Source: Candidatus Yanofskybacteria bacterium (GTDB lineage Bacteria; Patescibacteriota; Minisyncoccia; 2-02-FULL-40-12; GWA2-44-9). From it: 59,125 bases of DNA. This document shows positions 2,220-55,900 of this stretch, in pieces. Both the position numbers and the translations under genes were made by a program. The stretch lies in the NCBI GenBank assembly GCA_016181045.1, contig JACPAB010000002.1, positions 1 to 59,125 on the forward strand, in the 5' to 3' direction. Every line of letters begins with the position of its first letter. Within the stretch, counting starts at the first letter, position 1. Below the pieces are notes generated by a model. That model saw only the letters and a list, made by a program, of their open reading frames with translations. It was not told the origin of the DNA and did not search any database.

Positions 2220-2221
2220 TC

Positions 2222-33209: not shown

Positions 33210-33292
33210 CAAGGTCGTTAAATAGCCATTAGTTATTAGCCACTAGAAATTAGAATCTAAGTCCTAATGGCTAAGTTCTAATTACTAAATAT

Positions 33293-33457: not shown

Positions 33458-33465
33458 TGCCTGTT

Positions 33466-38582: not shown

Positions 38583-41500
38583 ATGCGGCCCGAAGAAGAG
38601 AGCTTTATAGAAGACAAAACGGGACAAAACTGGATGTCGATGTTTGAAGCATCCAGCCGATGCTCCTATTCACAGGAGTATTTGAGTTTGCTTGCCAGGC
38701 GCGGGAAGATCTTTGCGCAGAAGATCGGAAGGAACTGGTACACGACAGAGGACTCACTCAATGAGTATTTGAAAAAACAAAGTTTGACCATTACCGTTCC
38801 GAGAAACGTGCTTGGACGCTTGACCTCATCCGTTCCGCTTACACCGGAGGAACCGGAAGCGGGAGATAAATCTGACACCGGCCATGAAAGCCACTCTAAG
38901 GTCTTTGAGGAGTTCGAACGGCTCAACCCGCAATTATTTCAAGCAAAAAAATCCGAAAATTTGCCCGCCGGCGAAACGATAAAATTTCCCTCCGAAAAAG
39001 TTGTTCAGTCGACAGCGCCGGCATTCCAAAAACAAGATGACGTATTAAATAAACTCGACCGTCTTTCCGATTCTTTGGGGAACTTCGCGGAAAGAATTAC
39101 TAGAAAACTTGATCAGCCCAAAGAAGAACCATTAACCCCGGAACAGGAAGAATTTTTTGAAGTTCAACTGCCGTCGTTCGGATATCGTTTTAAAATATTT
39201 GACAGGTACGCGCGTTCAATGATGCGCAGTCCTGTCAGAATGATGACGATAATGATAACGGCGGTTGTGGCGATATTTATAATCGCCGGCGGGTTCAGTT
39301 TTGGCCAGGTGGACCATGTCGTTCAGCAGATACGGGATACTTTCAAAAATGCCGATACTCTGCAGGGCCATTTTCCGGGAACTCACGCTAATGAAGTTTT
39401 AGTGCTCGACAAAGCCGGAAACGTTTCAATATTCGGCCACATTGAGACCCAAGGCCAGCTTCGTTCTTTTGCATCTGACGGTGTGGCGCCGCTCGTCGTT
39501 GACTCAATGACATTGGTTGATAATTTGAATGCCAACTATTTGGACGGGTTGGCATCAAAGGACTTCACCCTCGCATTTGTCACCAAAAACGGCAATATTA
39601 CGCATGAGGACGTTTTTCTTGAAGGGAATGTCGAAGTAGGCAAGACACTAACTGTTAAAGGAGCTGCGAAACTTCTTGACTCACTCCAGGTCTATGGAAC
39701 TCTTGGCGTATTTTCTGATGCGGTATTTGGCAGGAATGTCACACTTACCAACGGCGATCTTTCAATAAAAAAGGGGACAATCAAAATTTTTAACACGGCC
39801 CTGATCAAAAATTTAAACGCCGAATTCTTGGACGGCCTCCGTAAAAACGATATTAATCTTGATTTTGTGACATCTAACGGCGCTTCTACCGCCAACGGCA
39901 TAACTATTGGCGCTCTGGAAGTGAATGGCCAGAGTGATTTTCGGGGGATGGGATTTTTTCATGAAGGCGTATGGGGTTCGGATGGCGCATTCGGGACTTT
40001 GGGGGTGTCAGGCGATGCAATCATAGGCAGTCAAGACAAACCGGAAAAATCAAGTTTTCAGGTCTATTCTAAAAAATTTCAGATTAACCAGGATGGGAAC
40101 GTAGGTATTAGCGGCAAAACCACTACTGCTGATCTGGTGGTCAGTAAAATGCTTTCTGACTTAATTTCTTCCGGTTCTTTCGATTTGGGTTCTTCAACAA
40201 ATCGCTGGGTGGATGTCTTTGCCCAGAATCTTAATTTAAGCGGGACATTCACCGCTTCGGGCAGTGTTAATTTCGCCGGCACATCATCCAATTCGTTTAC
40301 TATAAATACCGACAACGCCACGGCCGACACCGAGAACTCATATTTATCTTTTGAACGCGGGACGACAACGCCGAACGCGACCTTAAAATGGAATTCAACA
40401 AACAATCGTTTTGAATTCAACGAACCGCTTTTTGTGGCAAGTTCAAGCGCGGAGACGATTTTTTCCGTTTCCGGCGGTCCGGCATCAGTTTCCAATACCC
40501 TCTACGTTCAGAATGGCGGCAACGTCGGCATCGGGACGACTTCCCCCGGAGCTAAGCTGGATGTTGTTGGTCGTGGGCTGTTTGTCAATTCCGAAACCCA
40601 AGGCACCGCCTCCGCTTCATACCTCCTAACCGGCAACACTCTCCAAGTCGGGGGATTTGCTTCGGCGGCTTATTCAAGATTCGGGACTTTAACCCTTACA
40701 ACCAATCCTGCCGGCAACTGGATTACCACAACCAACGATGTCCTTGTCTCGGGAGATCTCTACGGTGTCGGCTCATTAGCTTTTGCCGGACCGGCATCAA
40801 TATCCAACACCTTATTTGTAGGCACAGGAGGCAAGACCGGCAACGTCGGCATCGGGACCACCGCTCCGCTTTCGAAGTTGGAAGTTAGTGGTGGGAGGTT
40901 GGAAGTTGGCGGAACGGCCAGCGCAAGCTATCTCCTCACCGGCAACACTCTCCAAGTCGGGGGATTTGCTTCGGCGGCTTATTCAAGATTCGGAACCTTA
41001 ACCACCGGGCATTCAAATTACATCTCCGCATCCAACGACCTTCTCATCTCCGGCGATCTTGAAGTAAAGGGCACCGCTTCGTTTGCCGGCGGAGCATCCA
41101 TATCCGGCAACTTCAATCTGGCCGGAGATCAGACAATCTCCGGCAACCTGACCGTAAACGGCACCGGCTCATCGTCGTTTGCGGGCTCACTTAATGTGTC
41201 CAAAGGAATACATGGCTTAGCCGATATCACCGCCACCGGAAGATTCATCGGCTACTCAACCGCTTCCAACTCCTTTGCCGGTTCGCTGGACATTACTAAA
41301 GGACTTCGGGTAACCGGCAACATCACCAACGACGCCCTATCTGCAAGCCGTTTGGTCTTCTCCAACGGCTCCAAGGTTCTTTCTTCGGTCTCAACTCTTA
41401 CTGGCTGGATAGCAGGTACAAGTAACCAAATCACGGTTACAGACGACTTGGACGGTTCTGTTACTCTCTCATTGCCTCAAAACATTCATACCGGAGCCAG

Positions 41501-44500
41501 TCCGACATTCGCCGGGCTTACCTTGACTGGCAATCTAACCGGAATCAATGCCGAGTTCCAAGGCACCGCTTCGGCTTCATACCTGCTCACAGGCAACACG
41601 CTCCAGGTGGGCGGCTATGCTTCGGCGGCGTATTCGAGGTTCGGGACTGATGAAACTGGCTACTCTAACTTTATCACCACAACAAATGACCTTCTTATTT
41701 CCGGCGATTTAGAAGTCAATGCTTCGGCCAATTTTGACGGCAATCTCCGAGTGGGCAACGGCTCCACTCCCGCCTTATTCGTCCAATCAGGAAATGGCAA
41801 CGTCGGCATCGGGACAACGGGACCACTTACGACTTTACACGTTAAGGGTAGTGTTGCTGATGATAAAATTCGTGCTCAGGGTTTGGTGGTTGGTGATCAC
41901 TCATTTATTGGTTCCTATAATTCGGCTGGAACAGTTACTGGTTACTTTGGGGCAACAAGGAATTCGGCTGATGGAGCGGGTCGTCCAGCAGATTCAGTAG
42001 TATTACTTACAGGTACAAATTCTCCCCTAGTTTTCAGCACAAATGAAAATGAGAGAATGAGAATTACAGGCGCCGGCAACGTCGGCATCGGGACGGCCAC
42101 TCCGACTTCTCTCTTAACCGTCCAAGGTCGTGGAGAGTTCCAAGGCACCGCCTCGGCTTCTTACCTTCTGACCGGCAATACCTTGCAGGTCGGAGGTTTT
42201 GCTTCGGCGGCGTATTCGAGGTTTGGGACTTCAACCCTGACCACTAACCCCGCCGGCAACTGGATTACCACAACCAACGACGTCTTGGTTTCGGGAGATC
42301 TCTACGGTGTCGGCTCATTAGCTTTTGCCGGTCCGGCATCAATATCCAACACCCTATTCGTGGGCACAGGCGGCAAGACCGGCAACGTCGGCATCGGGAC
42401 AACGGGACCGATTAATAAACTTGAAGTTGAGGGTGGCGATATTTCTTTTGGAAGCAGCACCACTAATCTACGAAAAATCATTTTCGGTTCTAATAATGGC
42501 AACGATTATTTAGGTTTTAGGGATGTTTCTTCTGGCACTAATGCGTTGGAGTTCGCGCAAGATGGCTCAATAAAGTTCGTGATAGATGGAGTAACCGGCA
42601 ACGTCGGCATCGGGAATACTGTTCCGGATACGAAACTTGATATTACCGGCACAGCTTCGGCCTCGCTTTACTATTCTGGCGATGGAGTCGTTGGTGCGCC
42701 CGGCTATTCTTTTTCTAATGATCCAAATACAGGAATTTACAGAGGCGGAACGGATATTTTAAGTTTTGCCACCGGTGGAAGCGAGCGAGTTCGCATTAAC
42801 GCTAATGGAAATGTCGGTATCAATTATGGAGGAAATCTTGATACCTTTTTTGAAGTAGGGGGGACTGCCTCTATTTCCGGCAATCTTCTTTTGGGTGGGA
42901 TCCAGCAGACAAGCGGCACTTCCTCGTCGTCATTCGCCGGGCTTCTCCAGTTGAACGCTACACCAACCGGAACCGGCATTAGCCAAGGCAGTTTATACCT
43001 TAACCCCAAATCAGCCGGAACCAACAATGTCATCATCGGGGTCGCTGTCAACTCAACCGAAAAACTCCGCATTGACGCCGAAGGTGATGTCCAGACCGTC
43101 GGTTTGTTCAATTCCACCAACACTTCCGGCACCAACCAGCTCTCCGGCAATCTCCAGGTTGACGGCAATACCACTTTGGGGAACGCTACCAGCGACACAA
43201 TCACCGCCACCGGCCGGTTTAGTTCGCATTTAATTCCTTCGGCTGACTTGACCTATAACCTCGGCGACCCGAGCTTGAGATGGGATTCTTTTTATGTTGC
43301 TTCGCTCTCCGTTACCAATCTATTTGCGGGAGGCACAGCTTCTTCATCATTCGTTATTAATAAGGATAATACTACAAATGACGCCGAGGATTCTTTTCTT
43401 GAATTTGAAAGAGGCACTGCCACGCCGAATGCAAAACTTCAATGGGATTCGGCTAACGACCAATTCGTGTTCAATTACCCGATAAGCACTGCCGGTTCAG
43501 TATTCGGCATAGGAACAGCTTCTTCATCATTTGCCGGACCGGTCTGGTTTACCGGTACGCCGACAGGGACGAATCTCCAAAGCGGCTCGGTTTATATAAA
43601 CCCGGGTTCAGCCGCGACTAATTATACTTTGTTCGGCATCGGCGTAGCCGGTGTTGAACGATTCAGAGTTGACGCTGAAGGCGACACGACGATTGCCGGC
43701 GATTTGGGAGTGGAAAACCAGATTTACGACATTACTGAAGATACTCTCCGAATCAACGACGACCTGCAAATAAACGGCAACGACATTAAGGATTCGGGGA
43801 CTACTGTTCGTATCACTCTCGGTGCGACTACCACTTTAACCGCAACTGTTACCGACTTAACCGGCGATTTGGAGGTCTCCGGTTTAGACATCAGGGATTC
43901 CGGCGGAACGAACAGGATTACTTTCACCACTCTTGGAGCTACCGGACTCACTTCCGTAACTGGCGCTTTGGACACGACTACATATCTTAAATCTGGCGAC
44001 GAGTTGATTGTCACCAACGCCGGCCAGTTTGCTGGCACGGCCACAGTTGCTTACTCGCGTTTTGGCACCACCGCCACCACCCACGCCCTCTCCGCCACTA
44101 ACGACCTTCTCATCAACGGCAAACTCGAAGTTGACGGCACGGCCTACTTTGACGGCACGGTCAACTTCCCAAGCATCGCCTCGGCCTCACTTTTCCATGC
44201 TCAAGATGGCACGGCCGCTTCTCCCAGCTATACCTTTGCCATTGACAAAGATACAGGCATGTTCAGGCCGGTTGTCAATCAATTAGCATTCTCTACTTTA
44301 GGAACTGAAAGGTTGAGAATTGATAACCTTGGCAACGTCGGCATCGGGACGACGGGGCCGACTTCTTTGCTAACCGTCCAAGGCCGGGGAGAGTTCCAGG
44401 GCACGGCCTCTGCTTCCTACCTCTTAACCGGAAATACCTTGCAGGTCGGAGGATTCGCTTCGGCGGCTTACTCGAGGTTTGGGACTTCAACTCTTACCAC

Positions 44501-47500
44501 CAACCCCGCCGGCAACTGGATAACGGGAAGCAACGATCTTCTTATCTCCGGTGACTTGTATGGGGTGGGTTCAATCGCATTTGCCGGTCCGGCTTCAATA
44601 TCCAACACCTTATTCGTAGGTACTGGCGGCAAGACCGGCAACGTCGGGATTGGGACGACGGGGCCGGCCAGCGCGCTTCATATCGGAGGAACAGGAGCAT
44701 TGTCATTTGGAACAAGTCCTGCCCAATCCGGCAATATCCGTGTCCCGAACAATACGACCATTATCGCGGCAAGAAGAGCCAATGATCTTTCGGATTTCGT
44801 AGTTTTGGTCTCGGATATTCAAAATAACATTACCATTAGTGCGGTCGGTGATGTCACTATCTCGCCAGGAACCGGCGCTATATGGGATTTTAAGACCGGA
44901 GCAGGGAACCCGCTCCAGCCACGAGGTGATAATGATACCGACTTTGGGGGGACTGCGACGCGTGTTAGGACCGGATATTTTGGCACCTCAATCGTCGACC
45001 CGCTCTTGATCGGTGGCTCCGCGGTCGGTTCTTCTCTTGAATTAAAGTCCACCTCCGGAGTCGGCACTACGGATTTTATCAAGTTCACCGTTGGCAATAA
45101 TGGTGGGACCGAAGCGATGCGGATTATTGACTCCGGCAACGTCGGCATCGGGACGACGGGGCCCACTAGCAGGTTGAATGTGGAAGGTGGGAGGTTGGAA
45201 GTTGGCGGCACTGCAAGCGCTTCATATTTTCTCACCGGCAACACTCTCCAGGTCGGGGGATTTGCTTCGGCGGCGTATTCAAGGTTCGGGACATCAACCA
45301 CCGGCCATTCAAACTACATCTCGGCAAGTAATGATTTACTGATAAGCGGCGATCTTGAAACCCGGGGTACCGCTTCATTCGGAGGAGTGGCAAGTGTATC
45401 AGGCAACTTCTTCACATATGGCACCAATACCTTCTCTGGCGCCGGCTCTTCTTCTTTTGCCGGCTCCCTTTCCGTCGCCAAGGGGTTCCTTGCCGGAGCC
45501 AACAATGCTTTGGTGGTCAATGGAGCGGCCACAGCCAACACCTTGAACATTGTCGGCGCTAACGTGGGCATCGGAACAACGGGGCCGGGAGCGAAGTTGC
45601 ACGTTTCTGATACGAGTCAGAATGCGGATTTGAAGTTGGAATCAACATATAGCGCTGCTACTGATGGTAGGGCACGATTAGTCATGACAGCGGTTGATAG
45701 GCAATGGATTGTACAACTTGATGGCACTGGTGACCTTTGGAAAATCAGAGATGATAGCGCGGGAGAAGACAGGTTAGTTATTAATTACGGCGGCAACGTC
45801 GGCATCGGGACGACGGGGCCGGGGTCGGCTTTGCATGTGATTAGTAATGTTGACAGTGAGGGAATTACTCTTGAGCGGACATCTGCAACAACGGGGAAAT
45901 ATTCATTTGGTCTAGATACAGCCGGTAATTTAAAGGTTAGTGAGACAGGCGTGTCGGCACGATTGACGGTGTTAAAAACTTCCGGCAACGTCGGCATCGG
46001 GACGACGGGGCCAGTTGGAAAATTGGAGATTCGAGGGACTACGGCAGATTCTCCAAATTTTGCTTTGAACTTATCTGACGTTGATGTCGCCCATGTAATT
46101 ACCGGATGGGCTCCCGCAGCGACCTATGGTTTCTTGAATATTCTTAACAGTACTGCGGGTGGACTTCAGGTCTTTGGAGCCAGCGATGCCGCTGGCGTTA
46201 GAGGTTTGGAACTGAATGGATTTATAGGAGTCACCGATCCCACAGACACAGTTCCAGCAATCTGGATAAACGGAGGCAAGTCTGACGGAACCAACCAAGC
46301 TGCGTTAGGTGCGGCAGAAACCGTGCTGCAGATTGCCAATGGCGGTACGGCGGCTGTCACGCTTTTAGGCAGCGGCAACGTCGGTATCGGGACGACGGGG
46401 CCGGGAAGCAAGCTTGATGTTTTAGGTGGGTGGGCAAATATCAGAGCTGGAACTTCGGGCATAACGCAACAAGCCAATGGAGAACTTCTTTTATCAAGCA
46501 CCGGCCCAAAACTGTGGATAGAGGATACGGATGCAACTTCTGGCCAGCGAGTTATGAAAATACACACTTCATCAGGATTAACGAAGTTTGAATCGATGTC
46601 GGATGATGGCGTAACCAATACCGTAGGAAACATATTAGTATTGGAACATTCAACCGGCAACGTCGGCATCGGGAATACGTCTCCTGACAGCAAACTTGAT
46701 GTAACCGGCACAGCTTCGGCTTCGCTCTACTATTCTGGCGATGGAACTGTTGGCGCGCCCGGCTATTCTTTTTCTCAAGATCCAAATACCGGAATTTATA
46801 GAGGCGGAACGGATATTTTAAGTTTTGCTACCGGCGGAAGCGAGCGAGTTCGTATTAATGCCAGTGGAAATGTCGGTCTTAACTACGGAGGAAATCTCGA
46901 TACTTTTTTTGAAGTAGGGGGGACCGCCTCAATCTCCGGCAATCTCTTGCTGGGAGGCATACAGCAGACAAGCGGCACCTCTTCGTCATCTTTTGCCGGC
47001 CTTTTGCAGTTGAATGCCACACCGGCCGGCACCGGTATCAGCCAGGGCAGTTTATACATCAATCCCAAGTCGGCCGGAACAAACAATGTTATTGTCGGCA
47101 TCGCCGTAAACTCCACCGAGAAGCTCCGCATTGACGCTGAAGGCGATGTCCAGACAGTTGGTCTTTTCAATTCCACCAATACTTCCGGCACCAACCAGTT
47201 ATCTGGCAACTTGCAGGTTGACGGCAATACCACTCTGGGTAATGCAACGTCGGATACTATCGCAACAACCGGCAGATTCAATTCCGACATCCTGCCATCA
47301 GCTGATTTAACATATAACCTTGGTTCTTCGGTTCTGCGCTGGGATAATGTCTATTTCGGCTCCGCCTCAATCACCAATCTTTTTGCCGGCGGCACGGCTT
47401 CCAGTTCTTTTATCATCAATTCCGACAATACTACCGCTGATGCCGAAGATTCGCAATTAGAATTTGAAAGAGGAACTACTATACCCAACGCGATATTGAA

Positions 47501-49127
47501 ATGGGATTCAACCAATGACCGGTTTGATTTCAATAATTTCCCGGTGCGTCTGCAAAACCAGCTGATTGTTGCCGGAACGACCAGTTCTTCGTCTTTTGCC
47601 GGGCCGACATGGTTCACCGGTACGCCGACCGGAACGGCTTTGGCGAATGGATCAGTGTTTATCAATCCAAGCTCCGGGCCGACAAACAACACTCTTTTTG
47701 CCATTGCTGTTGCCGGTTCGGAACGGTTAAGAATTGACGCGGAAGGCGATGCCACGATTCAGGGCGATTTAGGGGTGGAAAATCAGATTTACGACATTAC
47801 TGAAGATACTCTCCGAATCAATGACGATATCCAGATAAACGGCAATGACATCAAAGATTCAGGAACTGTGAGCAGGATTTCTCTTGGAGCCACCACCATC
47901 CTTACCAATACGATTACAGACTTGACCGGCGATTTAGAGATTTCAGGAGGCGATATTCGGGATTCTGGTGGAACAAACAGAGTCACGTTCAGCACCTTGG
48001 GAACAACCGGGCTCACTTCTATAACCGGCGCTCTGGACACGACCACCTATCTTAAATCAGGAGATGAATTGATTATTACCAATGCTGCCCAGTTTGCCGG
48101 CGCTTCGACCGCTTCATACTCAAGATTCGGCACCGTCGCTACCAGCCACGGTCTCTCCGCCACCAACGACCTTCTCATTAACGGCAAGCTTGAAGTTGAC
48201 GGCACCTCTTACTTTGACGGCACCACCAACTTCTTCGGCATTGCTTCTTCTTCACTCTTCTACGCCCAGCCCGGCACCGCCGCCTCGCCATCCTTCTCCT
48301 TTGCCATTGACCAAGATACGGGCATGTTCAGACCGGCAATCAACCAGCTGGGCTTCTCCACATTGGGGATTGAAAGATTGAGAATCAATTCTGACGGCAA
48401 TGTAGGCATCAACGCCGGAGGAACCATTGACACTAAATTTGAAGTCGGAGGCACGGCTTCAATCGGAGGCAATCTGACTACCTATGGCGCCAACACCTTC
48501 TCGGGCACCGGCTCATCCTCATTTTCCGGAAGCGTGGATATATCAAAAGGACTCCGAGTCGGAGCCAACACCGCCTTATCAGTCAATGCCAATGCCAGCG
48601 CCAATACATTGGTCTTAGTGGGCGGCAACGTCGGCATCGGGACGACGGGCCCGGTATATACACTTGATATACAAGCACCTACAGGTTCAGCTCGAATAAC
48701 ATCTTTAACTGGAACTGATCCTGTCTATCAGTATTTCGCTAATACTGGCGGTAGTGCCGTTATTGGGGTTGACAGTAGTACCGGAAATTCACTTATTTCA
48801 AGTGGTGGACTTGCTTATTCACTGGCTTTTGTAGCACCTGGTACTACTCGTGCCATTCAACTGGCAACCAATAACGCTGCCAGATTGACGATAGACAGCA
48901 CCGGCAACGTCGGCATCGGGACCACAGCCCCTACAAGCAAGCTTGAGGTGCTGGGCGGGCGGCTTGAGGTGGGCGGCACTGCCTCTGCTTCTTACCTTCT
49001 CACCGGCAATACTATCCAGGTTGGGGGCTTTGCCTCGGTTTCCTACAACCGCTTCGGTACTTCAACCACCGGCCATTCACCAACAACGCTTTGGTTGTTA
49101 ACGCCAACGCCACAGCCAACACCTTAA
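38583..49127 (+). CDS. Giant repetitive surface/fibre protein, N-terminal part (HTH, TM anchor, GNVGIG repeat array)
   Basis: YSQEYLSLLARRGKI..KIGRNWYTT HTH; TM ITAVVAIFIIAGGF; NLNA..LDG motifs; many GNVGIGT repeats; frame breaks near 49078. Confidence 0.85.
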   Translation: MRPEEESFIEDKTGQNWMSMFEASSRCSYSQEYLSLLARRGKIFAQKIGRNWYTTEDSLNEYLKKQSLTITVPRNVLGRLTSSVPLTPEEPEAGDKSDTGHESHSKVFEEFERLNPQLFQAKKSENLPAGETIKFPSEKVVQSTAPAFQKQDDVLNKLDRLSDSLGNFAERITRKLDQPKEEPLTPEQEEFFEVQLPSFGYRFKIFDRYARSMMRSPVRMMTIMITAVVAIFIIAGGFSFGQVDHVVQQIRDTFKNADTLQGHFPGTHANEVLVLDKAGNVSIFGHIETQGQLRSFASDGVAPLVVDSMTLVDNLNANYLDGLASKDFTLAFVTKNGNITHEDVFLEGNVEVGKTLTVKGAAKLLDSLQVYGTLGVFSDAVFGRNVTLTNGDLSIKKGTIKIFNTALIKNLNAEFLDGLRKNDINLDFVTSNGASTANGITIGALEVNGQSDFRGMGFFHEGVWGSDGAFGTLGVSGDAIIGSQDKPEKSSFQVYSKKFQINQDGNVGISGKTTTADLVVSKMLSDLISSGSFDLGSSTNRWVDVFAQNLNLSGTFTASGSVNFAGTSSNSFTINTDNATADTENSYLSFERGTTTPNATLKWNSTNNRFEFNEPLFVASSSAETIFSVSGGPASVSNTLYVQNGGNVGIGTTSPGAKLDVVGRGLFVNSETQGTASASYLLTGNTLQVGGFASAAYSRFGTLTLTTNPAGNWITTTNDVLVSGDLYGVGSLAFAGPASISNTLFVGTGGKTGNVGIGTTAPLSKLEVSGGRLEVGGTASASYLLTGNTLQVGGFASAAYSRFGTLTTGHSNYISASNDLLISGDLEVKGTASFAGGASISGNFNLAGDQTISGNLTVNGTGSSSFAGSLNVSKGIHGLADITATGRFIGYSTASNSFAGSLDITKGLRVTGNITNDALSASRLVFSNGSKVLSSVSTLTGWIAGTSNQITVTDDLDGSVTLSLPQNIHTGASPTFAGLTLTGNLTGINAEFQGTASASYLLTGNTLQVGGYASAAYSRFGTDETGYSNFITTTNDLLISGDLEVNASANFDGNLRVGNGSTPALFVQSGNGNVGIGTTGPLTTLHVKGSVADDKIRAQGLVVGDHSFIGSYNSAGTVTGYFGATRNSADGAGRPADSVVLLTGTNSPLVFSTNENERMRITGAGNVGIGTATPTSLLTVQGRGEFQGTASASYLLTGNTLQVGGFASAAYSRFGTSTLTTNPAGNWITTTNDVLVSGDLYGVGSLAFAGPASISNTLFVGTGGKTGNVGIGTTGPINKLEVEGGDISFGSSTTNLRKIIFGSNNGNDYLGFRDVSSGTNALEFAQDGSIKFVIDGVTGNVGIGNTVPDTKLDITGTASASLYYSGDGVVGAPGYSFSNDPNTGIYRGGTDILSFATGGSERVRINANGNVGINYGGNLDTFFEVGGTASISGNLLLGGIQQTSGTSSSSFAGLLQLNATPTGTGISQGSLYLNPKSAGTNNVIIGVAVNSTEKLRIDAEGDVQTVGLFNSTNTSGTNQLSGNLQVDGNTTLGNATSDTITATGRFSSHLIPSADLTYNLGDPSLRWDSFYVASLSVTNLFAGGTASSSFVINKDNTTNDAEDSFLEFERGTATPNAKLQWDSANDQFVFNYPISTAGSVFGIGTASSSFAGPVWFTGTPTGTNLQSGSVYINPGSAATNYTLFGIGVAGVERFRVDAEGDTTIAGDLGVENQIYDITEDTLRINDDLQINGNDIKDSGTTVRITLGATTTLTATVTDLTGDLEVSGLDIRDSGGTNRITFTTLGATGLTSVTGALDTTTYLKSGDELIVTNAGQFAGTATVAYSRFGTTATTHALSATNDLLINGKLEVDGTAYFDGTVNFPSIASASLFHAQDGTAASPSYTFAIDKDTGMFRPVVNQLAFSTLGTERLRIDNLGNVGIGTTGPTSLLTVQGRGEFQGTASASYLLTGNTLQVGGFASAAYSRFGTSTLTTNPAGNWITGSNDLLISGDLYGVGSIAFAGPASISNTLFVGTGGKTGNVGIGTTGPASALHIGGTGALSFGTSPAQSGNIRVPNNTTIIAARRANDLSDFVVLVSDIQNNITISAVGDVTISPGTGAIWDFKTGAGNPLQPRGDNDTDFGGTATRVRTGYFGTSIVDPLLIGGSAVGSSLELKSTSGVGTTDFIKFTVGNNGGTEAMRIIDSGNVGIGTTGPTSRLNVEGGRLEVGGTASASYFLTGNTLQVGGFASAAYSRFGTSTTGHSNYISASNDLLISGDLETRGTASFGGVASVSGNFFTYGTNTFSGAGSSSFAGSLSVAKGFLAGANNALVVNGAATANTLNIVGANVGIGTTGPGAKLHVSDTSQNADLKLESTYSAATDGRARLVMTAVDRQWIVQLDGTGDLWKIRDDSAGEDRLVINYGGNVGIGTTGPGSALHVISNVDSEGITLERTSATTGKYSFGLDTAGNLKVSETGVSARLTVLKTSGNVGIGTTGPVGKLEIRGTTADSPNFALNLSDVDVAHVITGWAPAATYGFLNILNSTAGGLQVFGASDAAGVRGLELNGFIGVTDPTDTVPAIWINGGKSDGTNQAALGAAETVLQIANGGTAAVTLLGSGNVGIGTTGPGSKLDVLGGWANIRAGTSGITQQANGELLLSSTGPKLWIEDTDATSGQRVMKIHTSSGLTKFESMSDDGVTNTVGNILVLEHSTGNVGIGNTSPDSKLDVTGTASASLYYSGDGTVGAPGYSFSQDPNTGIYRGGTDILSFATGGSERVRINASGNVGLNYGGNLDTFFEVGGTASISGNLLLGGIQQTSGTSSSSFAGLLQLNATPAGTGISQGSLYINPKSAGTNNVIVGIAVNSTEKLRIDAEGDVQTVGLFNSTNTSGTNQLSGNLQVDGNTTLGNATSDTIATTGRFNSDILPSADLTYNLGSSVLRWDNVYFGSASITNLFAGGTASSSFIINSDNTTADAEDSQLEFERGTTIPNAILKWDSTNDRFDFNNFPVRLQNQLIVAGTTSSSSFAGPTWFTGTPTGTALANGSVFINPSSGPTNNTLFAIAVAGSERLRIDAEGDATIQGDLGVENQIYDITEDTLRINDDIQINGNDIKDSGTVSRISLGATTILTNTITDLTGDLEISGGDIRDSGGTNRVTFSTLGTTGLTSITGALDTTTYLKSGDELIITNAAQFAGASTASYSRFGTVATSHGLSATNDLLINGKLEVDGTSYFDGTTNFFGIASSSLFYAQPGTAASPSFSFAIDQDTGMFRPAINQLGFSTLGIERLRINSDGNVGINAGGTIDTKFEVGGTASIGGNLTTYGANTFSGTGSSSFSGSVDISKGLRVGANTALSVNANASANTLVLVGGNVGIGTTGPVYTLDIQAPTGSARITSLTGTDPVYQYFANTGGSAVIGVDSSTGNSLISSGGLAYSLAFVAPGTTRAIQLATNNAARLTIDSTGNVGIGTTAPTSKLEVLGGRLEVGGTASASYLLTGNTIQVGGFASVSYNRFGTSTTGHSPTTLWLLTPTPQPTP
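42597..48395 (+). repeat. ~1.74-kb diverged internal duplication (42597-44330 vs 46656-48395)
   Basis: Both blocks run from GNVGIGNT.PD.KLD.TGTASASLYYSGDG to FSTLG.ERLRI. Confidence 0.85.
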
Positions 49128-49931
49128 ACATTGTGGGCGGCAACGTCGGCATCGGGACGACGGGGCCGACATCGCAATTATCCATAATAAAAACAGGCGC
49201 TAATACCACATTTCATTTGGGTCCAAGTGAATCTACTGGCCTGGATATTTTTCGCGAAAATGCAACGGGGAACATTTATTACGATGTAACTGAATCTGGG
49301 GCATCTGCTATCTTTAGAACCAATGCAGTTTCAAACGGGTCTTTTCAATTTTTGTCCGGCAACGTCGGCATCGGGACGACGGGGCCAACTTCGCTTCTCA
49401 CCGTCCAGGGCCGGGGCGAGTTCCAAGGCACGGCCTCTGCTTCTTACCTTCTCACCGGCAATACTATCCAGGTTGGGGGCTTTGCCTCGGTTTCCTACAA
49501 CCGCTTCGGTACTTCAACCACCGGCCATTCACTTTCGGAGGAACCGGCTCATCTTCTTTTGCCGGCTCCCTATCTATAGCCAAAGGATTCCTGGCCGGAG
49601 CCAACAACGCTTTGGTTGTTAACGCCAACGCAACAGCCAACACGCTGAACATTGTCGGCGGCAACGTCGGCATCGGGACCACAGCACCTACAAGCAAGCT
49701 TGAGGTGCTGGGCGGGCGACTTGAGGTCGGCGGCACCGCCTCGGCCTCCTACCTTCTCACCGGCAATACTTTGCAGGTTGGCGGCTTTGCTTCGGCGGCG
49801 TATTCAAGGTTTGGGACATCAACTCTTACGACCAATCCGGCAGGTAACTGGATAACGGGAAGCAACGACCTTCTTATCTCCGGCGACTTGTATGGCGTAG
49901 GTTCAAGGCGACTTGTATGGCGTAGGTTCAA
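49079..49931 (+). other. Internal fragments of the giant gene between three frameshifting junctions (probable assembly artefacts)
   Basis: ORFs 49091-49579 and 49612-50109 encode the same repeat units; 25-nt tandem duplication at 49882-49931. Confidence 0.7.
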
Positions 49932-52900
49932 TCGCATTTGCCGGACCAGCATCTATCTCCAACACTTTATTTGTCGGAACAGGCGGCAAGACCGGCAACG
50001 TCGGCATCGGGACGACGGGGCCGGGGCATACACTCCATATACGGTCAGCAAATCAGGGAGTCAATTTTGGAGGTACTACTGCTGTACAACTAGCTTTGTA
50101 TACAAGTGACGCGCAAGCCATTGACAAAGGTGGACAGATCGCACTAGGAGGGGCCACTGGTAATTCCAACACCCCGAACTATGCTTTTGGTACGATTGCG
50201 GGACGCAAGGAAAATGGCACCTCTGACAACTTTGCTGGATATCTGCAGTTTTCAACAACGGGGGGGGGTTCCACGATTGCCGAGGCCATGAGAATCACAA
50301 GCACCGGCAACGTCGGCATCGGGACCACAGCACCTACAAGCAAGCTTGAGGTGCTGGGCGGGCGACTTGAGGTGGGCGGCACGGCCTCTGCTTCCTACTT
50401 CTTGACCGGCAATACTCTCCAAGTCGGCGGATTTGCTTCGGTTGCCTATTCAAGGTTCGGGACTTCAACCTTGACTACTAATCCCGCTGGCAATTGGATT
50501 ACCACAACCAACGATGTCCTGGTCTCGGGGGACTTATACGGCGTCGGCTCATTATCCTTTGCCGGACCGGCATCAATATCCAACACCCTATTCGTGGGTA
50601 CAGGAGGCAATACCGGCAACGTCGGCATCGGGACGACGAACCCAAAGTTTAAATTAGATGTCCTTAAGTCGGGTGGAAGCGACATCGTGAGATTTGGCTC
50701 TGATACGACGAATTATCTGAAGATAGATAGTGGCACCATCTCGACGGACCTCGTCTCATCAGAAAATAGGGCTTTCACCATCTTAACCAATGCTGTCGAA
50801 CGTCTGAGAATCACCGGCGGCGGCAACGTCGGCATCGGGAATACTACGCCTGATTCAAAACTTGATGTGGCCGGAAATATCACTGCCTCTACTTCCGGCA
50901 ATATTGATTTAACCCTTCGTTCATCATCAGCCGTAGGCGACGACGGCAAATTCATTATCCGTTCAACAGGCGCTTCTGACCGCCTTGAAATCATGAACGG
51001 CTCCACGCCGACTTCGTTGGTTACGATTGCTTCATCCGGCAACGTCGGGATTGGGGAAACATCTCCCACAGCTTTACTTGAAATCAAAGGTGGAACCGCT
51101 TCAATCAGCAATACTTTGTTTGTAGAAAATAACGGCAGTGTGGGGATCGGGACGACGGTGCCGGAGGCAAAACTTACTATTTTGGGAGTATCTGGCAATC
51201 AAATAAAAATTGATTCATCGAATGGCACCGCAAGCGCTATTGTCTTTTTTAACGGAGGAGTCAACAGATGGGAATTCTACAGCAGTTCGAATTCTACCAA
51301 CGACTTAATTGTGCAGGATAATACCGCCGGTACTCAACCCCTCATAATTAAAAGGACAACCGGCAACGTCGGCATCGGGACGGAAACCCCATCCTCCCTT
51401 CTCACCGTCCAAGGCCGGGGAGAGTTCCAAGGCACCGCCTCGGCCTCTTACCTTCTGACCGGCAACACCTTGCAGGTGGGAGGATTTGCTTCGGCGGCGT
51501 ATTCAAGGTTCGGGACTACTGCCACCACTCATTCAAACTGGATTTCAACTGCCAGCGACCTTTTCTTATCCAATGACCTTGAAGGCCGGGGCTCCATTTC
51601 TTTTGCAGGAACCGCTTCCTTATCCAATACCCTCTGGGTCTCACCGGGAGGGTTTTCCGGCAACGTCGGCATCGGGACGACAGCACCAACTACGAAACTG
51701 GACGTTTCCGGGGCGGCTTCGGTATCCGCCGACTTTGAGGTCGGCGGCGTGATTTTGGCGGCTGACGGAACAACCTCTCTTCCAAGTATAGCGTTTACGA
51801 ATGATAGGGATGCCGGCATATATCGAGTTTCCAACGCTTTGAGCTTCACTCTTGGCGGCACGACGATGTTATCACTTGACGCGACCGGCTCGGAAAACCA
51901 AATCACCATTGACGGGGGGATTCCGCTGGGATTCGGCACCAGCGCACGGAATCCAACTGCATACCTGCGTCGCGATGCGAACAACATCCTGGGGATGCGC
52001 AATGGCACGGATGCGCAAGAATTTCGCATCTGGAACACGGATGCCGCCGCGGACGAATTTCTTAGTATCGGGTTCATCAATAACGCCAACGTGGCGACCT
52101 TTGAAACGGAGCAGGTCAGCGGTGGGACGGTGAGAAATTTTGCTTTCCTCGGCGGCAACGTTGGCATCAACACGACCACTCCTCAAACCAAATTCGAAGT
52201 CCAAGGCACCGCTTCCGCTTCTTACCTCCTGACTGGCAATACATTACAGGTGGGTGGTTTTGCCTCGGCTGCTTATTCAAGATTCGGCACCTTAACCACC
52301 GGGCATTCAAACTACATCTCGGCGTCTAACGATGTATTAATTTCCGGAGACCTTGAGACCCGGGGCACGGCTTCATTCGGAGGAGTGGCCTCGGTGTCGG
52401 GGAACTTCTTTACAAGAGGAACAAACACCTTCTCGGGAACCGGCTCCACCTCATTCTCCGGAAGCGTGGACATATCCAAAGGCCTTCGGGTCGGAGCCAA
52501 CACCGCATTATCGGTCAATGCCAACGCCTCGGCTAACACATTGGTTTTGGTGGGCGGCAATGTCGGGATAGGGACGAGCGACCTTACGACAAAACTTGAA
52601 GTGGCTGGCACGGCCTCTATTTCCGGGGCTACCACCTTAAGAGGGATAACCTACACCTGGCCCTCTGTTGATGGTTCGGCTAATCAGTTCCTGAGAACCA
52701 ATGGCTCGGGAACATTGGCTTGGGCCACATCCGGAGTAGCATCCAACTCCTTGGACTTCGATGAGTTTGTAAACAATATGACTCTAGATGCTAATTTGAG
52801 AATCACTTCGGCCTCTTACCAATTCAATTTAAGAAACACCGACTTTATTGCCGGCAATATCACTGCTTCATCGTCAGGCAATGTAGATTTTGTCCTTAGA

Positions 52901-55900
52901 TCATCCACCACTAATGGGGCAGCCAACAATGATGATGCTAAGTTTACTATCAGAACGGGATCATCTTCCGAGAACTTCCAGATCAGAAATGGGGCGAATA
53001 CCACTCTCCTCTCTATCGCTTCCAGTTCTGGCTTATTCAGTATTAAAGGTACCCTCACAGCCTTAACGGGAAACAATCTGAAATTACAGGCCTCAGGGAC
53101 TGGAACGGGAAGCACTGGATCAGGATCCATCTATTTCCTTGATTCCAGTGGAACGACCAAGGGGAGATTGGGAACCACTTCCACTGATACGGTAACACCG
53201 AATGCAGGCACGGGAGCTGATGGAAGTATTTCTCTCACCACGGCTGGAACTACTAATTGTCAGACCACTGCCATCGCAAACGGCAGATCAAACGCTGATT
53301 GTATTGCTACGGCTATTAGTACCACTTCCAACTCTGGCCAGACAGTGGTTACTGTTTCCTCTACCACCGGTTTCGCTGTTAATGATGAAATTCTATTGAT
53401 CCAAATGACCGGCACAGGGGCTGGTAACTATGAGTTTAGAAAAATTAGCAGTATAGATTCTTCAACCCAGATATCTACGACTGCTAATCTTACGAACACA
53501 TATACTAATGACGGGTCATCTAAGCCCCAGATGGTGAGAGTGCCGAATTACAATAACGTTACGATTGGTGATACCGGCCAAGCCAGAACACTAACCGTAA
53601 GCGCCTGGAATGGAACAGTGGGTGGAATATTGGCATTTCGGGCCAAGGGAACGGTGACGGTGGCGAGTGGGAGCTTAATTGATGTGAATGGATTGGGGCT
53701 TGGAGGTGGCGCGGGTGGCACAGGCGGAAACGGCGGCGCTGGCGTGGCACAGACGAATGCCGGTAACGGTAGCTTGGGTTCGACTGGTACTGCTGGTTCA
53801 GGAACCGGCGGCGGCAACGGAGGTGTGGCTGGCGGTGCAGTTGGTAACGGAGCGACGGGAGGTGCATCAAACGCGGGTTCTGGAGGTGGCGGAGCCGGAG
53901 GCATGGGAGGCGGAGGAGCAGGCGGGGCTTATGCAACCGCAAACGCTGGCGGTAATGGCACCTCGGGCGCTGGCGGAAACGGCGGCGCTGGCAGCGGTAC
54001 AGCGGGGACCCCAGGTTCCGGCGGAGCAGGAGGAGCTGGCACCGGAGGAGCCGCAGGAAGTACGCATGGCGCGGCCAGCTTGTCTACCCTATTTTTGGGT
54101 TCCGGCGGAGGAGGCGGCGCCGGCGGTAATGGCGGCGGCGGCGCAAACGGAGTCGAAGGTACAGGCGGCGGCGCCGGCGGTAATGGCGGCACAGGCGGAG
54201 CCGGAGGTGCAGGCGGTGGAATTGTATTTATAGAAGCAAGCACGATTTCTAACAGCGGGACGATTCGGGCGGATGGGAGTAGTGGAAGTTCAGGTTTAGT
54301 GGGATCAGTTGGCGCAAATGGGTTCAATGGTACTAACTGGCAGCAAGGCGGTGGTGGCGGAGGTTCTGGGGGAGCACCTGGCGGCGGCGGTTCAGGTGGA
54401 TCTGTCTATGTTGCGGCCTCAACCGTTACTGCAGGTACCATTACCGCCTCTGGCGGTTCAGGCAGTTCAACTGGTGGCAATGGCGGAAACGGCGGCGTTG
54501 GTGATGGTCCGAATATTAATGAAAATGGTGGCGGTGGCGGTGGCGGTGCCGGTGTTACTGGTGGAAGTGGAGGAGCAGGCGGAGGCACAACTGCGGTAGC
54601 TGGATCTGCAGGTGCTTCCGTAGCTGCGGGCGCGGGTAGCGCCGGCGGCAATGGCCGTATTCGCTGTGATACGTCTGCTGGTTCTGGCTGCACCACTACT
54701 CCATCAGCCAACCAGAACGTCTACAGCGCATCTCTTGGTAATAGCTTAGGCACCCTCTATATTGGTGCCACCAACACGACTTCCTCCGACTTGGCGGAGT
54801 ATTATCCCGCCCATGATAAATCTCTTGTTTCCGGCGATGTGGTTTCGGTTGATTTTGATGGTTCCAGCTACGGTCTTGTAAAAGCCCGCGACTCTGATCC
54901 GCCCTTAGGGATAATATCAACCAACCCCGGCTTGATACTCGGCGGAGGCGAGGGAGACAAATCGAGTGAACGTCTTGTCGCCCTGGCCGGGCGGGTGCCG
55001 GCTAAGGTTTCCGACGAGAACGGCCCGATCAACGTCGGCGACAAATTGGCGGTTAGTAAAACCACATCCGGCTATGCGATGAAAGCAACCGAAGCCGGAG
55101 AGATAGTGGGCGTAGCTCTTGAGCCGTTTGGTAATTTGCCGGCGTCGAGTTCATTTGAAAATGTTGCCAGCGGCTCATTCTCAAATCTTGCTTCCGGCTC
55201 GGTTCCGGTTGCTCCGCCAAAGCCGGTAACTTACGGGAAAATTCTGACTTTCGTGAATGTCGGCTATTGGGCGCCGGCGGAAAGCCAGATTTCGATAAAT
55301 GGAGAATTTGCGATCAGAGGAAGCGGGAGCTTGTCTGATGTAATCGTGGTATCATCGGTTGAGTTTGGAGAGGTTGCCTCCGGTTCAAGAGCGGTTATTG
55401 CCACAGTTATCAAAACGGTTTTGACGAAAGTCCAAAACCTCTGGGCATCCGGCGACATTATCGCCGAGGGCATCCGCAAAACGTATTTTGCGGTTGTTAA
55501 TATTGAAATATTTAAGGATTTAAATATAACCGATTGGGGGACGCGAAGCATAACTATCGCCAATACTGCTGATGATGCGACAAAATCATTATTTAGTGGA
55601 AACGGCGCGCAGGCGGCGGCGGAGTCAAAATTAGACCTCAAGGAGAACGGCGCATACTTAGCCACCTACGGCGTGGACTCAACCAGGGGAGAGATTGCGT
55701 TGAGCGGTTCGTCTGATTTAGTCGGCGGCGAGGCGAAAGTGTTCTTCGACTTCTCGTTCAGTTCGGTAATATCGCCAGATGTTCCTTTGAAAGTTTTGAC
55801 GACCCCGACAACCATGATGCAGGGCCAGTTATATGTGGCCAACAAGACGCCTTATGGCTTTGTGGTCAAAGGCATGAACGGCGCTTTGGACGGAAAGTTT

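Follow-up and report, generated by a model that had tools for sequence, protein, structure and literature searches.

The fibre gene and its repeated motif

The sequence analysed, hereafter the window, is the 59,125-nucleotide stretch comprising positions 1-59,125 of contig JACPAB010000002.1 in assembly GCA_016181045.1 of Candidatus Yanofskybacteria bacterium, a groundwater bacterium of very small size whose genome is 85% complete at 46% GC, with 8 further contigs beside that of the window. The plus strand carries one fibre gene of ~17.7 kb, which as assembled is divided among the following open reading frames (ORFs):

38583-49127, +, giant fibre gene, ORF piece 1, 3514 aa
49091-49579, +, ORF fragment of 162 aa in a second frame of the fibre gene, holding motif copies 49139 and 49358
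49612-50109, +, ORF fragment of 165 aa in the third frame of the fibre gene, holding motif copy 49660
49913-56284, +, fibre gene, ORF piece 2, 2123 aa

From its N-terminus, piece 1 passes through a weak HTH_17-like segment and a hydrophobic anchor into fibre domains, and piece 2 holds further fibre domains, a Gly-rich region, a C-terminal region and a Pro/Thr-rich tail; throughout the fibre, conserved stalk segments alternate with unique domains. Sequence searches matched the protein to the solved fibres 8OND (E 8.3e-9) and 8OJN (6.6e-5) over stretches reading ...ERMRIDTSGNLGLGTAAPTSALHV... in the capping-loop region, and to PHROG tail-fibre families at 5e-39, and returned no Peptidase_S74 match in the fibre protein. 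The product is a membrane-anchored giant fibre of the phage-tail-fibre or mosaic adhesive trimer (MAT) kind, built as a chain of beta-helix domains, each of which begins with the capping-loop peptide GNVGIG(T/N)T.P..KL.V. Because the motif is the first strand and capping loop of every beta-helix domain, the segments that the initial annotation delimited as modules are divergent domains of one family.

Within the DNA encoding this peptide an exact 19-mer, GGCAACGTCGGCATCGGGA, occurs in 22 copies, all on the plus strand and all within the fibre gene, and no copy arose in dinucleotide shuffles (0/100). The 19-mer is absent from the reverse strand and from the genome's other 8 contigs, and 13-mers of the motif are found nowhere else in the genome on either strand. 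Twenty-two of the 26 GNVGIG sites in the gene are letter-exact and the remaining four are 1-3 letters off; GNVGIN, GNVGLN and GNVGIS copies at 40095, 42807, 46866, 48396 and 52154 are 4-9 letters off. Copies, variants and the larger units that they bound are as follows:

40518-40536, +, exact copy 1
40839-40857, +, exact copy 2
41796-41814, +, exact copy 3
42075-42093, +, exact copy 4
42381-42399, +, exact copy 5
42597-42615, +, exact copy 6; left edge of block B
42597-44330, +, block B, 578 aa, duplicated as B'
42807-42824, +, GNVGIN within block B, other codons, 7 differences
44331-44349, +, exact copy 7, closing block B on the right; hairpin-capable 29-nt form
44637-44655, +, GNVGIG, 2 synonymous differences
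45135-45153, +, exact copy 8
45558-45576, +, ANVGIG, 4 differences
45558-46655, +, four stacked unique domains (78, 64, 130 and 94 aa)
45792-45810, +, exact copy 9; unique module on both sides
45984-46002, +, exact copy 10; unique module on both sides
46374-46392, +, GNVGIG, 1 synonymous difference (GGT)
46656-46674, +, exact copy 11; left edge of block B'
46656-48395, +, block B', 81% amino-acid identity to B
46866-46883, +, GNVGLN within block B', other codons, 9 differences
48396-48413, +, GNVGIN, bounding block B' on the right; 6 differences, other codons
48624-48642, +, exact copy 12
48903-48921, +, exact copy 13
49139-49157, +, exact copy 14; in a different frame from copy 13
49358-49376, +, exact copy 15
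49660-49678, +, exact copy 16; another frame shift
49994-50012, +, exact copy 17; another frame shift
50306-50324, +, exact copy 18
50615-50633, +, exact copy 19
50822-50840, +, exact copy 20
51038-51056, +, GNVGIG, 3 differences
51362-51380, +, exact copy 21
51659-51677, +, exact copy 22
52154-52172, +, GNVGIN, 4 differences
52556-52574, +, GNVGIG, 3 differences; last copy of the array

All copies are direct, identical DNA often reaches 24-29 nt around the peptide codons, and spacings are multiples of 3 wherever the frame is unbroken, the frame being preserved in 17/20 successive master-type copy intervals. The repeat described by the initial annotation is present where it was placed, as are the copies buried in the scaffold that use other codons, and the case for it is stronger than the annotation made it. 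Its span of 41796-51380 captured a real array but one that is wider (40518-52573), and every module length that it gave is a multiple of 3, although the boundary drawn at 51134 is a GSVGIG variant inside the module that starts at 51038. The spacings of 236 nt (48903 to 49139), 302 nt (49358 to 49660) and 334 nt (49660 to 49994) imply three frame breaks in the assembled gene:

49079-49080, +, frame break 1; stalk segment truncated, a net 187 nt shorter than the intact copy 45135-45557
49531-49532, +, frame break 2; left breakpoint shared with break 1, where a 100-nt exact repeat ends
49882-49931, +, frame break 3; exact 25-nt tandem duplication (49882-49906 / 49907-49931)

The 100-nt exact repeat (48981-49080 = 49433-49532) is recent and ends within a stalk segment, away from the motif.

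Synonymous invariance, composition and recurrence of the motif

The motif is invariant at synonymous sites, and the invariance has sharp edges. Its six codons have a probability of 0.0011 by genome usage (309 ORFs, 109,278 codons) and likewise 0.0011 by the fibre gene's own usage. At 28 aligned sites, the control residue Pro +9 is encoded by CCG 12, CCA 6, CCT 6 and CCC 3 times, Leu +13 by six codons, and Val +15 and Gly +17 by four codons each. Between pairs of stalk segments the same-codon fraction is 1.00 over codons 0-5, 0.6 at the next and 0-0.3 for most of codons 7-18, averaging about 0.5 outside codons 0-18. Since the isolated conserved Pro, Leu, Val and Gly residues vary freely in codon, the invariant island corresponds to the stretch in which invariant residues follow one another without a gap. 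The stalk segments also have an invariant core of 29 residues, which has a same-codon fraction of about 0.5 and is not homogenised, and so whether a tract is homogenised is not predicted by its length of homology alone. The proposal that the motif is an element at the nucleotide level is upheld, because codon preference does not account for it, as judged from genome and gene codon usage together with the free downstream control codons; nor does the invariance stem from recent duplication, as the repeats around the motif are only 60-89% identical.

Composition separates modules from scaffold, as had been suspected: GC3 is 0.41 +/- 0.10 in 14 unique modules, 0.57 +/- 0.03 in 8 stalk segments and 1.0 in the motif. 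With the window's other ORFs at 0.44-0.57 and one at 0.67, it is the stalk segments rather than the modules that deviate. GC3 climbs with copy number, a trend compatible with GC-biased exchange or with selection favouring a stable joint. Mutual dissimilarity of the modules holds for their DNA but not for several of the encoded proteins, which are 30-40% identical over most of their length, and the 130-aa domain (45984-46373) has motif-to-motif relatives in distant taxa.

Fibre genes of relatives, which are located at contig ends, show 68-81% nucleotide identity over stretches of >100 nt. The exact 18-mer is found in them at 13/15 (G002), 5/5 (G040), 4/6 (G043) and 3/4 (G010) sites, and among the 20 relatives listed the exact 17-mer is found at 31/123 GNVGIG sites. 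Many further contigs of Patescibacteria, DPANN and viruses carry identical letters, and exact copies occur in viral contigs and in MAGs whose labels span several phyla (L064 21/26, L204 19/21, L060 8/10, L161 5/5); related genes with the same peptide but few exact copies also exist (G018 1/21, L109 1/20). In other loci, 422/435 exact copies lie in frames open for 50 codons on each side and the rest are mostly near gene ends, and the same architecture is found in complete chromosomes of other lineages (L109, L124).

Across 46 arrays, third-position identity of the motif is 0.67 within arrays versus 0.56 between them, the Pro and Leu control positions reaching 0.38-0.46 within arrays; the corresponding motif values are 0.72 and 0.36 in 3 viral arrays that are codon-unbiased. 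The AT-rich phage arrays L336 and L325 are homogenised to variants of their own, with unrelated flanks, and one variant predominates in arrays whose MAGs bear the labels of several different phyla. Glycine codons are position-specific (GGC, GGC, GGG here; middle GGT in L346 and L219), and in the codon-unbiased viral sample codon 0 is GGC 111 times versus GGG 11, and codon 5 GGG 60 times versus GGC 38. The commonest alternative form has GGC for GGG (39 sites), A/T variants each being rarer (<=18 sites), and where the majority allele of an array differs from the common form, it is A/T in 46 cases and G/C in 8.

Rearrangement boundaries fall at the motif, in agreement with the initial annotation. 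Identity between blocks B and B' is 0.2 up to the left motif, 0.87 from there on and 0.23 past the right one, the fibre gene of the same-genus genome G003 is colinear until ~20 nt before the first motif and carries other modules thereafter, and module types recur motif-to-motif in distant genomes in different order. The duplicated segments shared by L028/L102 (303 nt) and L011/L012 (151 nt) likewise start at motif copies. Recurrence of the modules themselves at high identity in a second context, another earlier expectation, was not found, the best matches having 44-52% amino-acid identity.

Proposed exchange at the motif and competing explanations

The array-specific codon variants, the motif-bounded 1.7 kb duplication and the end of colinearity in G003 lead us to propose, with a probability of roughly 0.5, that the motif undergoes concerted evolution and doubles as an in-frame joint for domain shuffling, through homologous recombination or slippage at the motif. 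Repeated homologous exchange among many direct, in-frame copies, whether by unequal crossing-over, short-patch gene conversion or replication slippage, would keep the motif DNA identical. Because the tract is the only uninterrupted homology common to otherwise dissimilar domains, exchanges would begin and resolve within it, homogenising the tract while whole domains are duplicated, deleted or swapped with the frame intact. Recombination would thus be the homogenising force, and domain shuffling may diversify a contact fibre. Efficient RecA exchange usually requires homology at or above the 19-29 nt available here, which counts against this exchange, as do the 100-nt repeat that ends away from the motif, the stalk core that escapes homogenisation and the failure to find any module at high identity in two contexts. 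The k=31 read contigs, which break at the motif and whose 'joints' are all <31 letters on the shorter side, revealed no exchange event directly. Neutral concerted evolution would, moreover, yield a drifting consensus, yet one variant predominates in arrays whose MAGs carry different phylum labels and its Gly codons are position-specific, which points to some additional force, be it selection acting on the motif letters, biased conversion or lateral exchange.

Biased conversion might also act with no shuffling role at all. As a neutral by-product, G/C-biased gene conversion would freeze an ancestral version with G or C at every third position, the common transitions to A/T being erased and only rare C<->G changes spreading. 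The third positions of the 24-mer are indeed all G or C in this 46% GC genome, GC3 climbs with copy number, the commonest alternative is a C/G change, and A/T accumulates in decayed arrays. We nevertheless regard this explanation as unlikely, given that GC3 returns to background immediately past codon +7, the invariant stalk core is not homogenised, the choice between C and G is position-specific even in the codon-unbiased viral sample, AT-rich arrays are homogenised to A/T, and departing majority alleles are predominantly A/T. That the letters are instead kept by an mRNA or translation function (local structure, a folding or trimerisation pause, or a site for an RNA-binding factor) would suit the open frames around nearly all exact copies elsewhere, the position of the motif at the start of every domain, the run of five C-ending codons followed by G-ending ones, with a Watson-Crick tRNA for each where a tRNA gene was found, and the stable folding of some motif forms. 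Differing codons fixed at the three Gly positions, however, are not optimal-codon choice; the conserved Pro, Leu, Val and Gly codons nearby are unbiased; the GNVGIN and GNVGLN copies of the same gene use other codons; related genes manage the same peptide without the letters (G018, L109); most copies lack a hairpin; and a Shine-Dalgarno-like sequence is absent from the motif as read by eye. Such a function is accordingly quite improbable.

An assembly artefact, in which pieces of different genes or strains were joined at a motif common to many members of the community and 48.9-50.0 kb is a misjoin, could account for part of the mosaic. Depth is 1,300-4,600 in motif-rich bins versus 55-90 elsewhere; k=31 contigs start or stop at motif copies; three frame breaks fall within 1 kb, two of them where the 100-nt repeat ends and one at the exact 25-nt tandem duplication; and the relatives' genes sit at contig ends. 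Single k=31 contigs nonetheless cross several copies with 0 differences (41141-42163, 46374-47813, 50614-51422), the frame is intact in most intervals, and the architecture is repeated in complete chromosomes, making an artefact very unlikely; the synonymous invariance itself is beyond the reach of any misjoin. We give least credence to a dedicated site-specific recombinase that acts on the 19-mer to insert, excise and exchange in-frame cassettes moving between genes and genomes, the integron- or shufflon-like reading of the initial annotation. The conserved island with very sharp edges, the identical letters in several labelled phyla and viral contigs, the position-specific Gly codons, the four unique domains stacked site to site and the folding of the 29-nt form at -15.5 kcal/mol (z -3.6) would all be in keeping with it. 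The analogy is not supported, however, on several grounds: the only recombinase found in the 85%-complete genome is a single Xer-type tyrosine recombinase, located on a different contig (C5), with no serine recombinase found; 22/22 copies are direct and coding; the hairpin form is limited to 7/22 copies, with covariation not above control pairs; the modules are related in-frame domains of one family rather than independent genes or cassettes, with no near-identical module in a second context; the motif 13-mer occurs nowhere else in the genome; and the AT-rich phage arrays, homogenised to other letters, argue against a single shared recognition site.

Relation to known systems

Short specific repeats bound variable segments in integron attC/IntI cassettes and in the R64 shufflon (Rci, 19-bp sfx repeats), whose segments are alternative C-termini of a surface adhesin. 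The fibre gene shares this arrangement, but a dedicated recombinase was not found here, the repeats lie in direct orientation within coding sequence, a single ORF contains the segments as in-frame domains, and attC-like structure is missing in most copies. In Borrelia vlsE, 17-bp direct repeats flank variable segments of a surface protein that are exchanged by gene conversion. The fibre gene likewise has variable coding segments for a surface protein set between short direct repeats; unlike in such expression-site/silent-cassette systems, all 22 copies lie in one gene and a separate silent-cassette array was not found.

In the T-even phage gp38 adhesins, as described in the accessible part of Trojet et al. 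2011 (PMC3157838), glycine-rich motifs (GRMs) separate hypervariable segments, so that in both cases conserved Gly-rich motifs bound variable segments of a host-recognition protein. Here, by contrast, entire domains of 64-580 aa form the units, 20-30 to an array and with no known homology to gp38, and the joint is invariant at synonymous sites and common to lineages with ~70% identical flanks, exchange being deduced here without crosses. Also among the closest known systems are phage beta-helix tail fibres and the MAT fibres of Bdellovibrio bacteriovorus, including fibres with C-terminal parts exchanged in evolution (Caulton et al. 2024, PMC10769870); the accessible part of that paper makes no mention of nucleotide-level conservation of the loop. 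The fibre here is 5-6 times longer, with repeated stalk segments alternating with unique domains, and its N-terminus has an HTH-like segment and a hydrophobic anchor where the MAT fibres, as far as that part describes them, have a signal peptide and a conserved 130-aa domain. The matched stretches lie in the capping-loop region, and in Bd2133 the first beta-helix domain begins with G683, which is the initial G of GNLGLG (Caulton et al. 2024, PMC10769870); taken with the 8OND match, this indicates that the motif marks a domain start in a solved fibre.

The fibre gene and its domain layout

The window is C3:1-59125 of a 457-kb genome in nine contigs (46% GC, rated 85% complete). On its sequence we read four ORF pieces on the forward strand as what would be a single fibre gene of ~17.7 kb, interrupted by three frame breaks at 49.08-49.93 kb.

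Features of the fibre gene and its frame breaks
38583-49127, +: ORF piece 1, 3514 aa
between the 3514-aa and 2123-aa ORFs, +: two short ORF fragments in other frames
48981-49080 = 49433-49532, +: 100-nt exact repeat
49079/80 and 49531/2, +: frame breaks 1 and 2, truncated stalk segments with a shared left breakpoint at the end of the 100-nt exact repeat
49882-49906 / 49907-49931, +: frame break 3, exact 25-nt tandem duplication
49913-56284, +: ORF piece 2, 2123 aa

The three frame breaks fall inside a single 1-kb stretch of the fibre gene (49079-49931) and could be assembly misjoins or real lesions; the contigs of relatives also end in these fibre genes. The N-terminus carries a weak, excisionase-type HTH_17-like match (residues 17-67) whose E value of 0.0016 is below the Pfam cut-off, followed by a hydrophobic stretch near residues 220-240 (window 38583-39400). 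It is odd for a surface fibre to have a DNA-binding-like head, and this N-terminal region keeps ~69-71% nucleotide identity in relatives. The remainder of the protein resembles phage tail-fibre families (phrog_9942, 5e-39; phrog_18345, 6.5e-23) and matches by sequence the solved Bdellovibrio MAT fibres 8OND (E 8.3e-9), 8OJN (6.6e-5) and 8OL4 (0.0079). Pfam returned no family for the fibre part and no Peptidase_S74 in either ORF piece, PDB searches with the first 645 aa and the last 1242 aa gave nothing usable, and NCBIfam gave no match to the last 527 aa (54701-56281). At 53600-54900 lies a long low-complexity stretch, rich in Gly, Ala and Asn and containing 51-nt repeat families, and the C-terminal tail (56100-56284) is rich in Pro, Thr and Glu.

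Within the fibre, stalk segments of about 100-140 aa (8-11 copies) alternate with unique modules of 64-166 aa, and a block of 578 aa is duplicated. The initial annotation had delimited unique modules running from motif to motif, four of them stacked in tandem; their coordinates, their lengths and the stack of four were borne out. Several unique modules are 30-41% identical to one another over most of their length, indicating that they belong to one domain family and have diverged, and all lie in one reading frame and are read through as domains of a single protein. Several modules had also been described as more T/A-ending in codon use than their scaffold. This held insofar as GC3 is 0.41 in the unique modules and 0.57 in the stalk, but it is the stalk that is unusually rich in GC3 and not the modules that are unusually poor; GC3 climbs with copy number, from unique modules through stalk to 1.0 in the motif.

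The PDB alignments (8OND, 8OJN) fall on ...ERMRIDTSGNLGLGTAAPTSALHV..., that is, on the GNVGIG motif. MAT fibres are described, in the part of Caulton et al. 2024 consulted (PMC10769870), as intertwined trimers of beta-helix domains bearing "capping loops" with the consensus V-G-G/N-pi-X-X-P-X-X-X-L, whose register is one residue off the motif here, and the first beta-helix domain of Bd2133 is placed there at G683; chain numbering makes this residue the first G of GNLGLG. These alignments identify the motif as the predicted structural start of each beta-helix domain. Such a role accounts for conservation of the peptide and for modules that run site to site, but it does not explain the conservation of the DNA letters.

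Other features of the window were recorded alongside the fibre gene. Directly upstream of the fibre locus, a 1020-aa ORF (33652-36714) has no Pfam match and the highest GC3 in the window (0.67). At 32109-33536 a four-tRNA cluster encloses an ORF with a LAGLIDADG_3 domain (32244-33044), the end of which overlaps the tRNA at 33030-33113. A release-factor ORF on the reverse strand (29145-29909) is only 254 aa long, and its PCRF match covers only profile positions 99-194, so that it lacks the N-terminal domain such proteins normally have; immediately upstream, also on the reverse strand, is an L31-like ORF.

Synonymous invariance of the motif in the window and in other lineages

The 19-mer GGCAACGTCGGCATCGGGA occurs 22 times, all in forward orientation (reverse, 0), with no copy elsewhere in the genome and none in 100 of 100 shuffles. 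The fibre gene has 26 GNVGIG sites, 22 of which are letter-exact, the remaining four differing by 1-3 letters, and the six motif codons have a probability of 0.0011 under the codon usage of either the genome or the gene. The exact repeat that the initial annotation had noticed is thus real. In an alignment of 28 sites, which takes in ANVGIG and one GNVGIN variant, the six motif codons were used at 24-27 of 27-28 sites, whereas the equally conserved residues Pro(+9), Leu(+13), Val(+15) and Gly(+17) were each spelled with four to six codons. Codon preference was therefore rejected as the cause of the invariance. Recent tandem duplication was rejected as well: the repeats surrounding the motif are 60-89% identical, and the same-codon fraction between pairs of stalk segments is 1.00 at codons 0-5, then 0.6, falling to 0-0.3 over most of codons 7-18 with ~0.5 elsewhere, a sharp island that is not the trace of a recent duplication. 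The identical tract extends to 24 nt in 9/22 copies and to 29 nt in 7/22. With regard to a possible pause at rare codons, the tRNA anticodons CCC, CGU and GAU are present in the assembly; tRNA-Gly(GCC), tRNA-Asn and tRNA-Val(GAC) were not found in it, at 85% completeness.

Among 61 related genomes, 38 hold the 19-mer with up to two mismatches, compared with a single match for a reversed control pattern, and when every synonymous spelling was searched for, 44 of the 61 had sites. The share of GNVGIG sites with the exact 18-mer ranged from high (13/15, 5/5, 4/6 and 3/4 in relatives G002, G040, G043 and G010) to low (1/21, 2/10 and 0/19 in G018, G016 and G005), and the exact 17-mer stood at 31 of 123 sites among the 20 relatives listed. 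The relatives' genes share 68-81% nucleotide identity with the window gene over stretches longer than 100 nt and reach 91% only over 86 nt, and on these values recent lateral transfer of whole genes was rejected for the relatives fetched.

Exact scans of public collections each returned at least 120 stretches, and the matches listed included viral contigs and metagenome-assembled genomes (MAGs) whose labels cover numerous Patescibacteria lineages as well as DPANN archaea, Elusimicrobia, Omnitrophica and other groups. Single matches in GC-rich genomes may reflect plain codon bias, but arrays of exact copies do not (21/26, 19/21, 8/10, 8/12 and 5/5 sites at loci L064, L204, L060, L050 and L161). 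After one ascertaining match per locus was dropped, the exact form stood at 105/354 and 64/187 further sites. At 429 exact sites in other loci, the next two Thr codons were ACG in 322/401 and 237/329 cases, and past these two codons codon use was ordinary; 422 of 435 exact copies lay in open frames. In a codon-unbiased viral sample of 231 sites from 118 loci, three exact sites were present compared with 0.007 expected, so that the exact form is enriched yet rare across phages at large. Several unrelated arrays (loci L064, L067, L128 and L150; relatives G018 and G055) also spell this peptide in a second way, GGGAATGTGGGGAT(T/C)GGG, beside the main one. At 87 viral GNVGIGTT sites, neighbouring Gly and Thr third letters tend to match (GGA-ACA, GGG-ACG, GGT-ACT), with a chi-square of 61 computed over sites that are non-independent within one array.

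The 130-aa domain at 45984-46373 has full-length relatives that span motif to motif in distant loci at 41-52% identity, such as positions 71-439 of L064, with a motif at 440, and positions 1063-1416 of the related genome G058, where a motif likewise follows. A metagenome scan with this domain returned seven loci, all 44-52% identical, and thus no recent exchange of the domain was seen in that scan.

Weighing the proposed mechanisms of exchange

The initial annotation had likened the modules to an integron array and proposed that they are mobile in-frame cassettes inserted or exchanged at a specific site; an integron-like mechanism found no support. An integron has an IntI-type recombinase beside its array, and none was found beside the fibre array: a PF00589 search of the whole genome gave one match, on contig C5, which NCBIfam scores as XerC/XerD/XerA-like (246, 244 and 235 bits) and as integron integrase at only 135 bits (cut-off 265). 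No recombinase domain was found among the ten ORFs neighbouring the fibre gene, and no serine recombinase in the genome at 85% completeness. In integrons the attC sites are hairpin-forming imperfect inverted repeats, about 57-141 bp long, whereas the conserved element here measures 19-29 nt and all copies are direct. A hairpin (-15.5 kcal/mol, z -3.6) requires the continuation ...CGACGGGGCC, present in 7/22 copies; copies lacking it have z scores of +0.5 to +0.8, and the third-position pairs 9-21 and 6-24 were no more associated than control pairs, so covariation was not detected. Integron cassettes are, moreover, separate promoterless genes, unlike these modules, which are domains of one protein, and the integron tests showed nothing of a mobile cassette. 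Shufflons and DNA-invertase systems differ in having inverted repeats with an Rci- or Din-type recombinase, against 22 direct copies and a Xer-type enzyme only. A guide-like partner was rejected, as both strands of the rest of the genome were free of any 13-mer of the 24-mer and the one 12-mer found is within chance (0.71 expected). A link to reverse transcriptase was likewise rejected, RT genes being present in 4/5 relatives with homogenised arrays (motif copies alike at synonymous sites) and in 4/5 with decayed arrays. Outside the window, C1:13272-15110 holds an RT ORF (372 aa, RVT_1 1.6e-23) beside a 120-nt repeat pair (13272-13391 / 13765-13884, 86.7% identical); together these are probably a diversity-generating retroelement acting on another gene. 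The target of such an element carries a variable repeat that differs from its template, near the RT, specifically at adenines; the fibre gene did not show this pattern, as the repeat pair gave no match to it.

The part of the initial annotation that gained support, of an indirect kind, is the exchange of domains at a specific DNA repeat, to which homogenised arrays and motif-edged rearrangements both point. Across 46 arrays, third-position identity in the motif is 0.67 within arrays and 0.56 between them, and in three codon-unbiased arrays 0.72 and 0.36, compared with 0.38-0.46 within arrays at Pro/Leu control positions. The AT-rich viral arrays L336 and L325 have near-uniform spellings of their own with unrelated flanks, and L346, L219 and L313 have intermediate spellings. 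Spellings proper to each array are the pattern of concerted evolution and argue against a single universal recognition sequence. As for rearrangements, identity between blocks 42597-44330 and 46656-48395 is about 0.2 ahead of the left motif, 0.87 from that motif on and 0.23 past the right motif; two duplicated segments in other MAGs begin within 2 nt of a motif copy; the gene of G003, a genome of the same genus, is colinear with the window gene over the N-terminal 1.9 kb until about 20 nt before the first motif and carries different modules beyond; and locus L109 orders its module types U10, U6, U4, U8 where the window has U4, U6, U8, U10. When 380 loci were compared all against all by megablast, the only matches besides overlapping records were a few short duplicates inside single genomes. 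The invariant DNA island coincides with an uninterrupted run of invariant residues and excludes isolated conserved residues past a variable position, as expected if contiguous identity is what matters. The climb of GC3 with copy number points the same way.

The best explanation, to which we assign a probability of about 0.5, is a recombination joint held uniform through concerted evolution, in which homologous exchange among motif copies would keep the joint uniform. Several points sit less easily with it: no exchange event was seen, the tract is short for RecA, and the 29-residue invariant stalk core is not homogenised. One motif spelling, with position-specific Gly codons, is dominant across MAGs whose labels name several phyla. 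A concerted family drifting neutrally would not be expected to show this, so an extra force is needed, be it biased conversion, lateral exchange or selection acting on the letters. Stalk segments at window 44395-44659 share 80.8% DNA identity with those of G043, a genome of another family (L016 8846-9110), and the N-terminal region is only 69% identical to that of G003 despite the shared genus, a disparity that may have been left by lateral exchange of fibre segments. We regard as improbable the wider reading that a community-wide exchange network uses the 19-24-nt sequence as its shared connector standard, with domains spliced in frame via ordinary recombination or an unrecognised enzyme or guide that reads it. 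If it were true, all fibre-domain boundaries in the ultra-small Patescibacteria, in DPANN archaea and in the viruses of both would retain the same letters, and domains from DNA uptake or phage could enter resident fibre genes in frame.

The stretch is present in four runs from one groundwater study as k=31 contigs, which are broken at copies of the motif. Bins rich in the motif have 20-60x the depth of the rest of the gene, indicating that the motif and its near flanks are common to many other genes in the community. The k=31 joints listed are no evidence of deletions: with 21-31 letters on their shorter sides, they represent other contexts of the motif.

Significance and relation to known systems

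Mosaic tail fibres and adhesins are textbook cases of modular evolution, yet the DNA joints of module swaps have rarely been pinned down. This locus gives a concrete joint, an invariant in-frame tract at every domain boundary that recurs in many other lineages, and so renders the old "linker sequence" idea testable. It bears on how episymbiotic ultra-small microbes diversify fibres that probably contact their hosts. In practice, a shared k-mer fragments assemblies and can cause misjoins, and giant fibre genes in MAGs therefore need long-read checks; the 19-mer can also serve as a probe for such genes in metagenomes.

The literature searched on tail-fibre motif recombination, Patescibacteria giant proteins and MAT fibres yielded nothing on nucleotide-level conservation, nor were the peptides GNVGIG, NVGIGT, GNVGIGT and NVGIGTT found in it. 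Judged by its database matches, the predicted protein belongs with the MAT or tail-fibre-like beta-helix fibres, in a non-S74 form, and the motif has the same placement as the capping-loop motif of MAT fibres, at the edges of beta-helix domains. The closest known case in design is the T-even gp38 adhesin, a likeness of design only for which we claim no homology. New here is a joint that is invariant at synonymous sites, that bounds whole domains in arrays of 20-30, and that is common to lineages whose flanks are saturated with changes.
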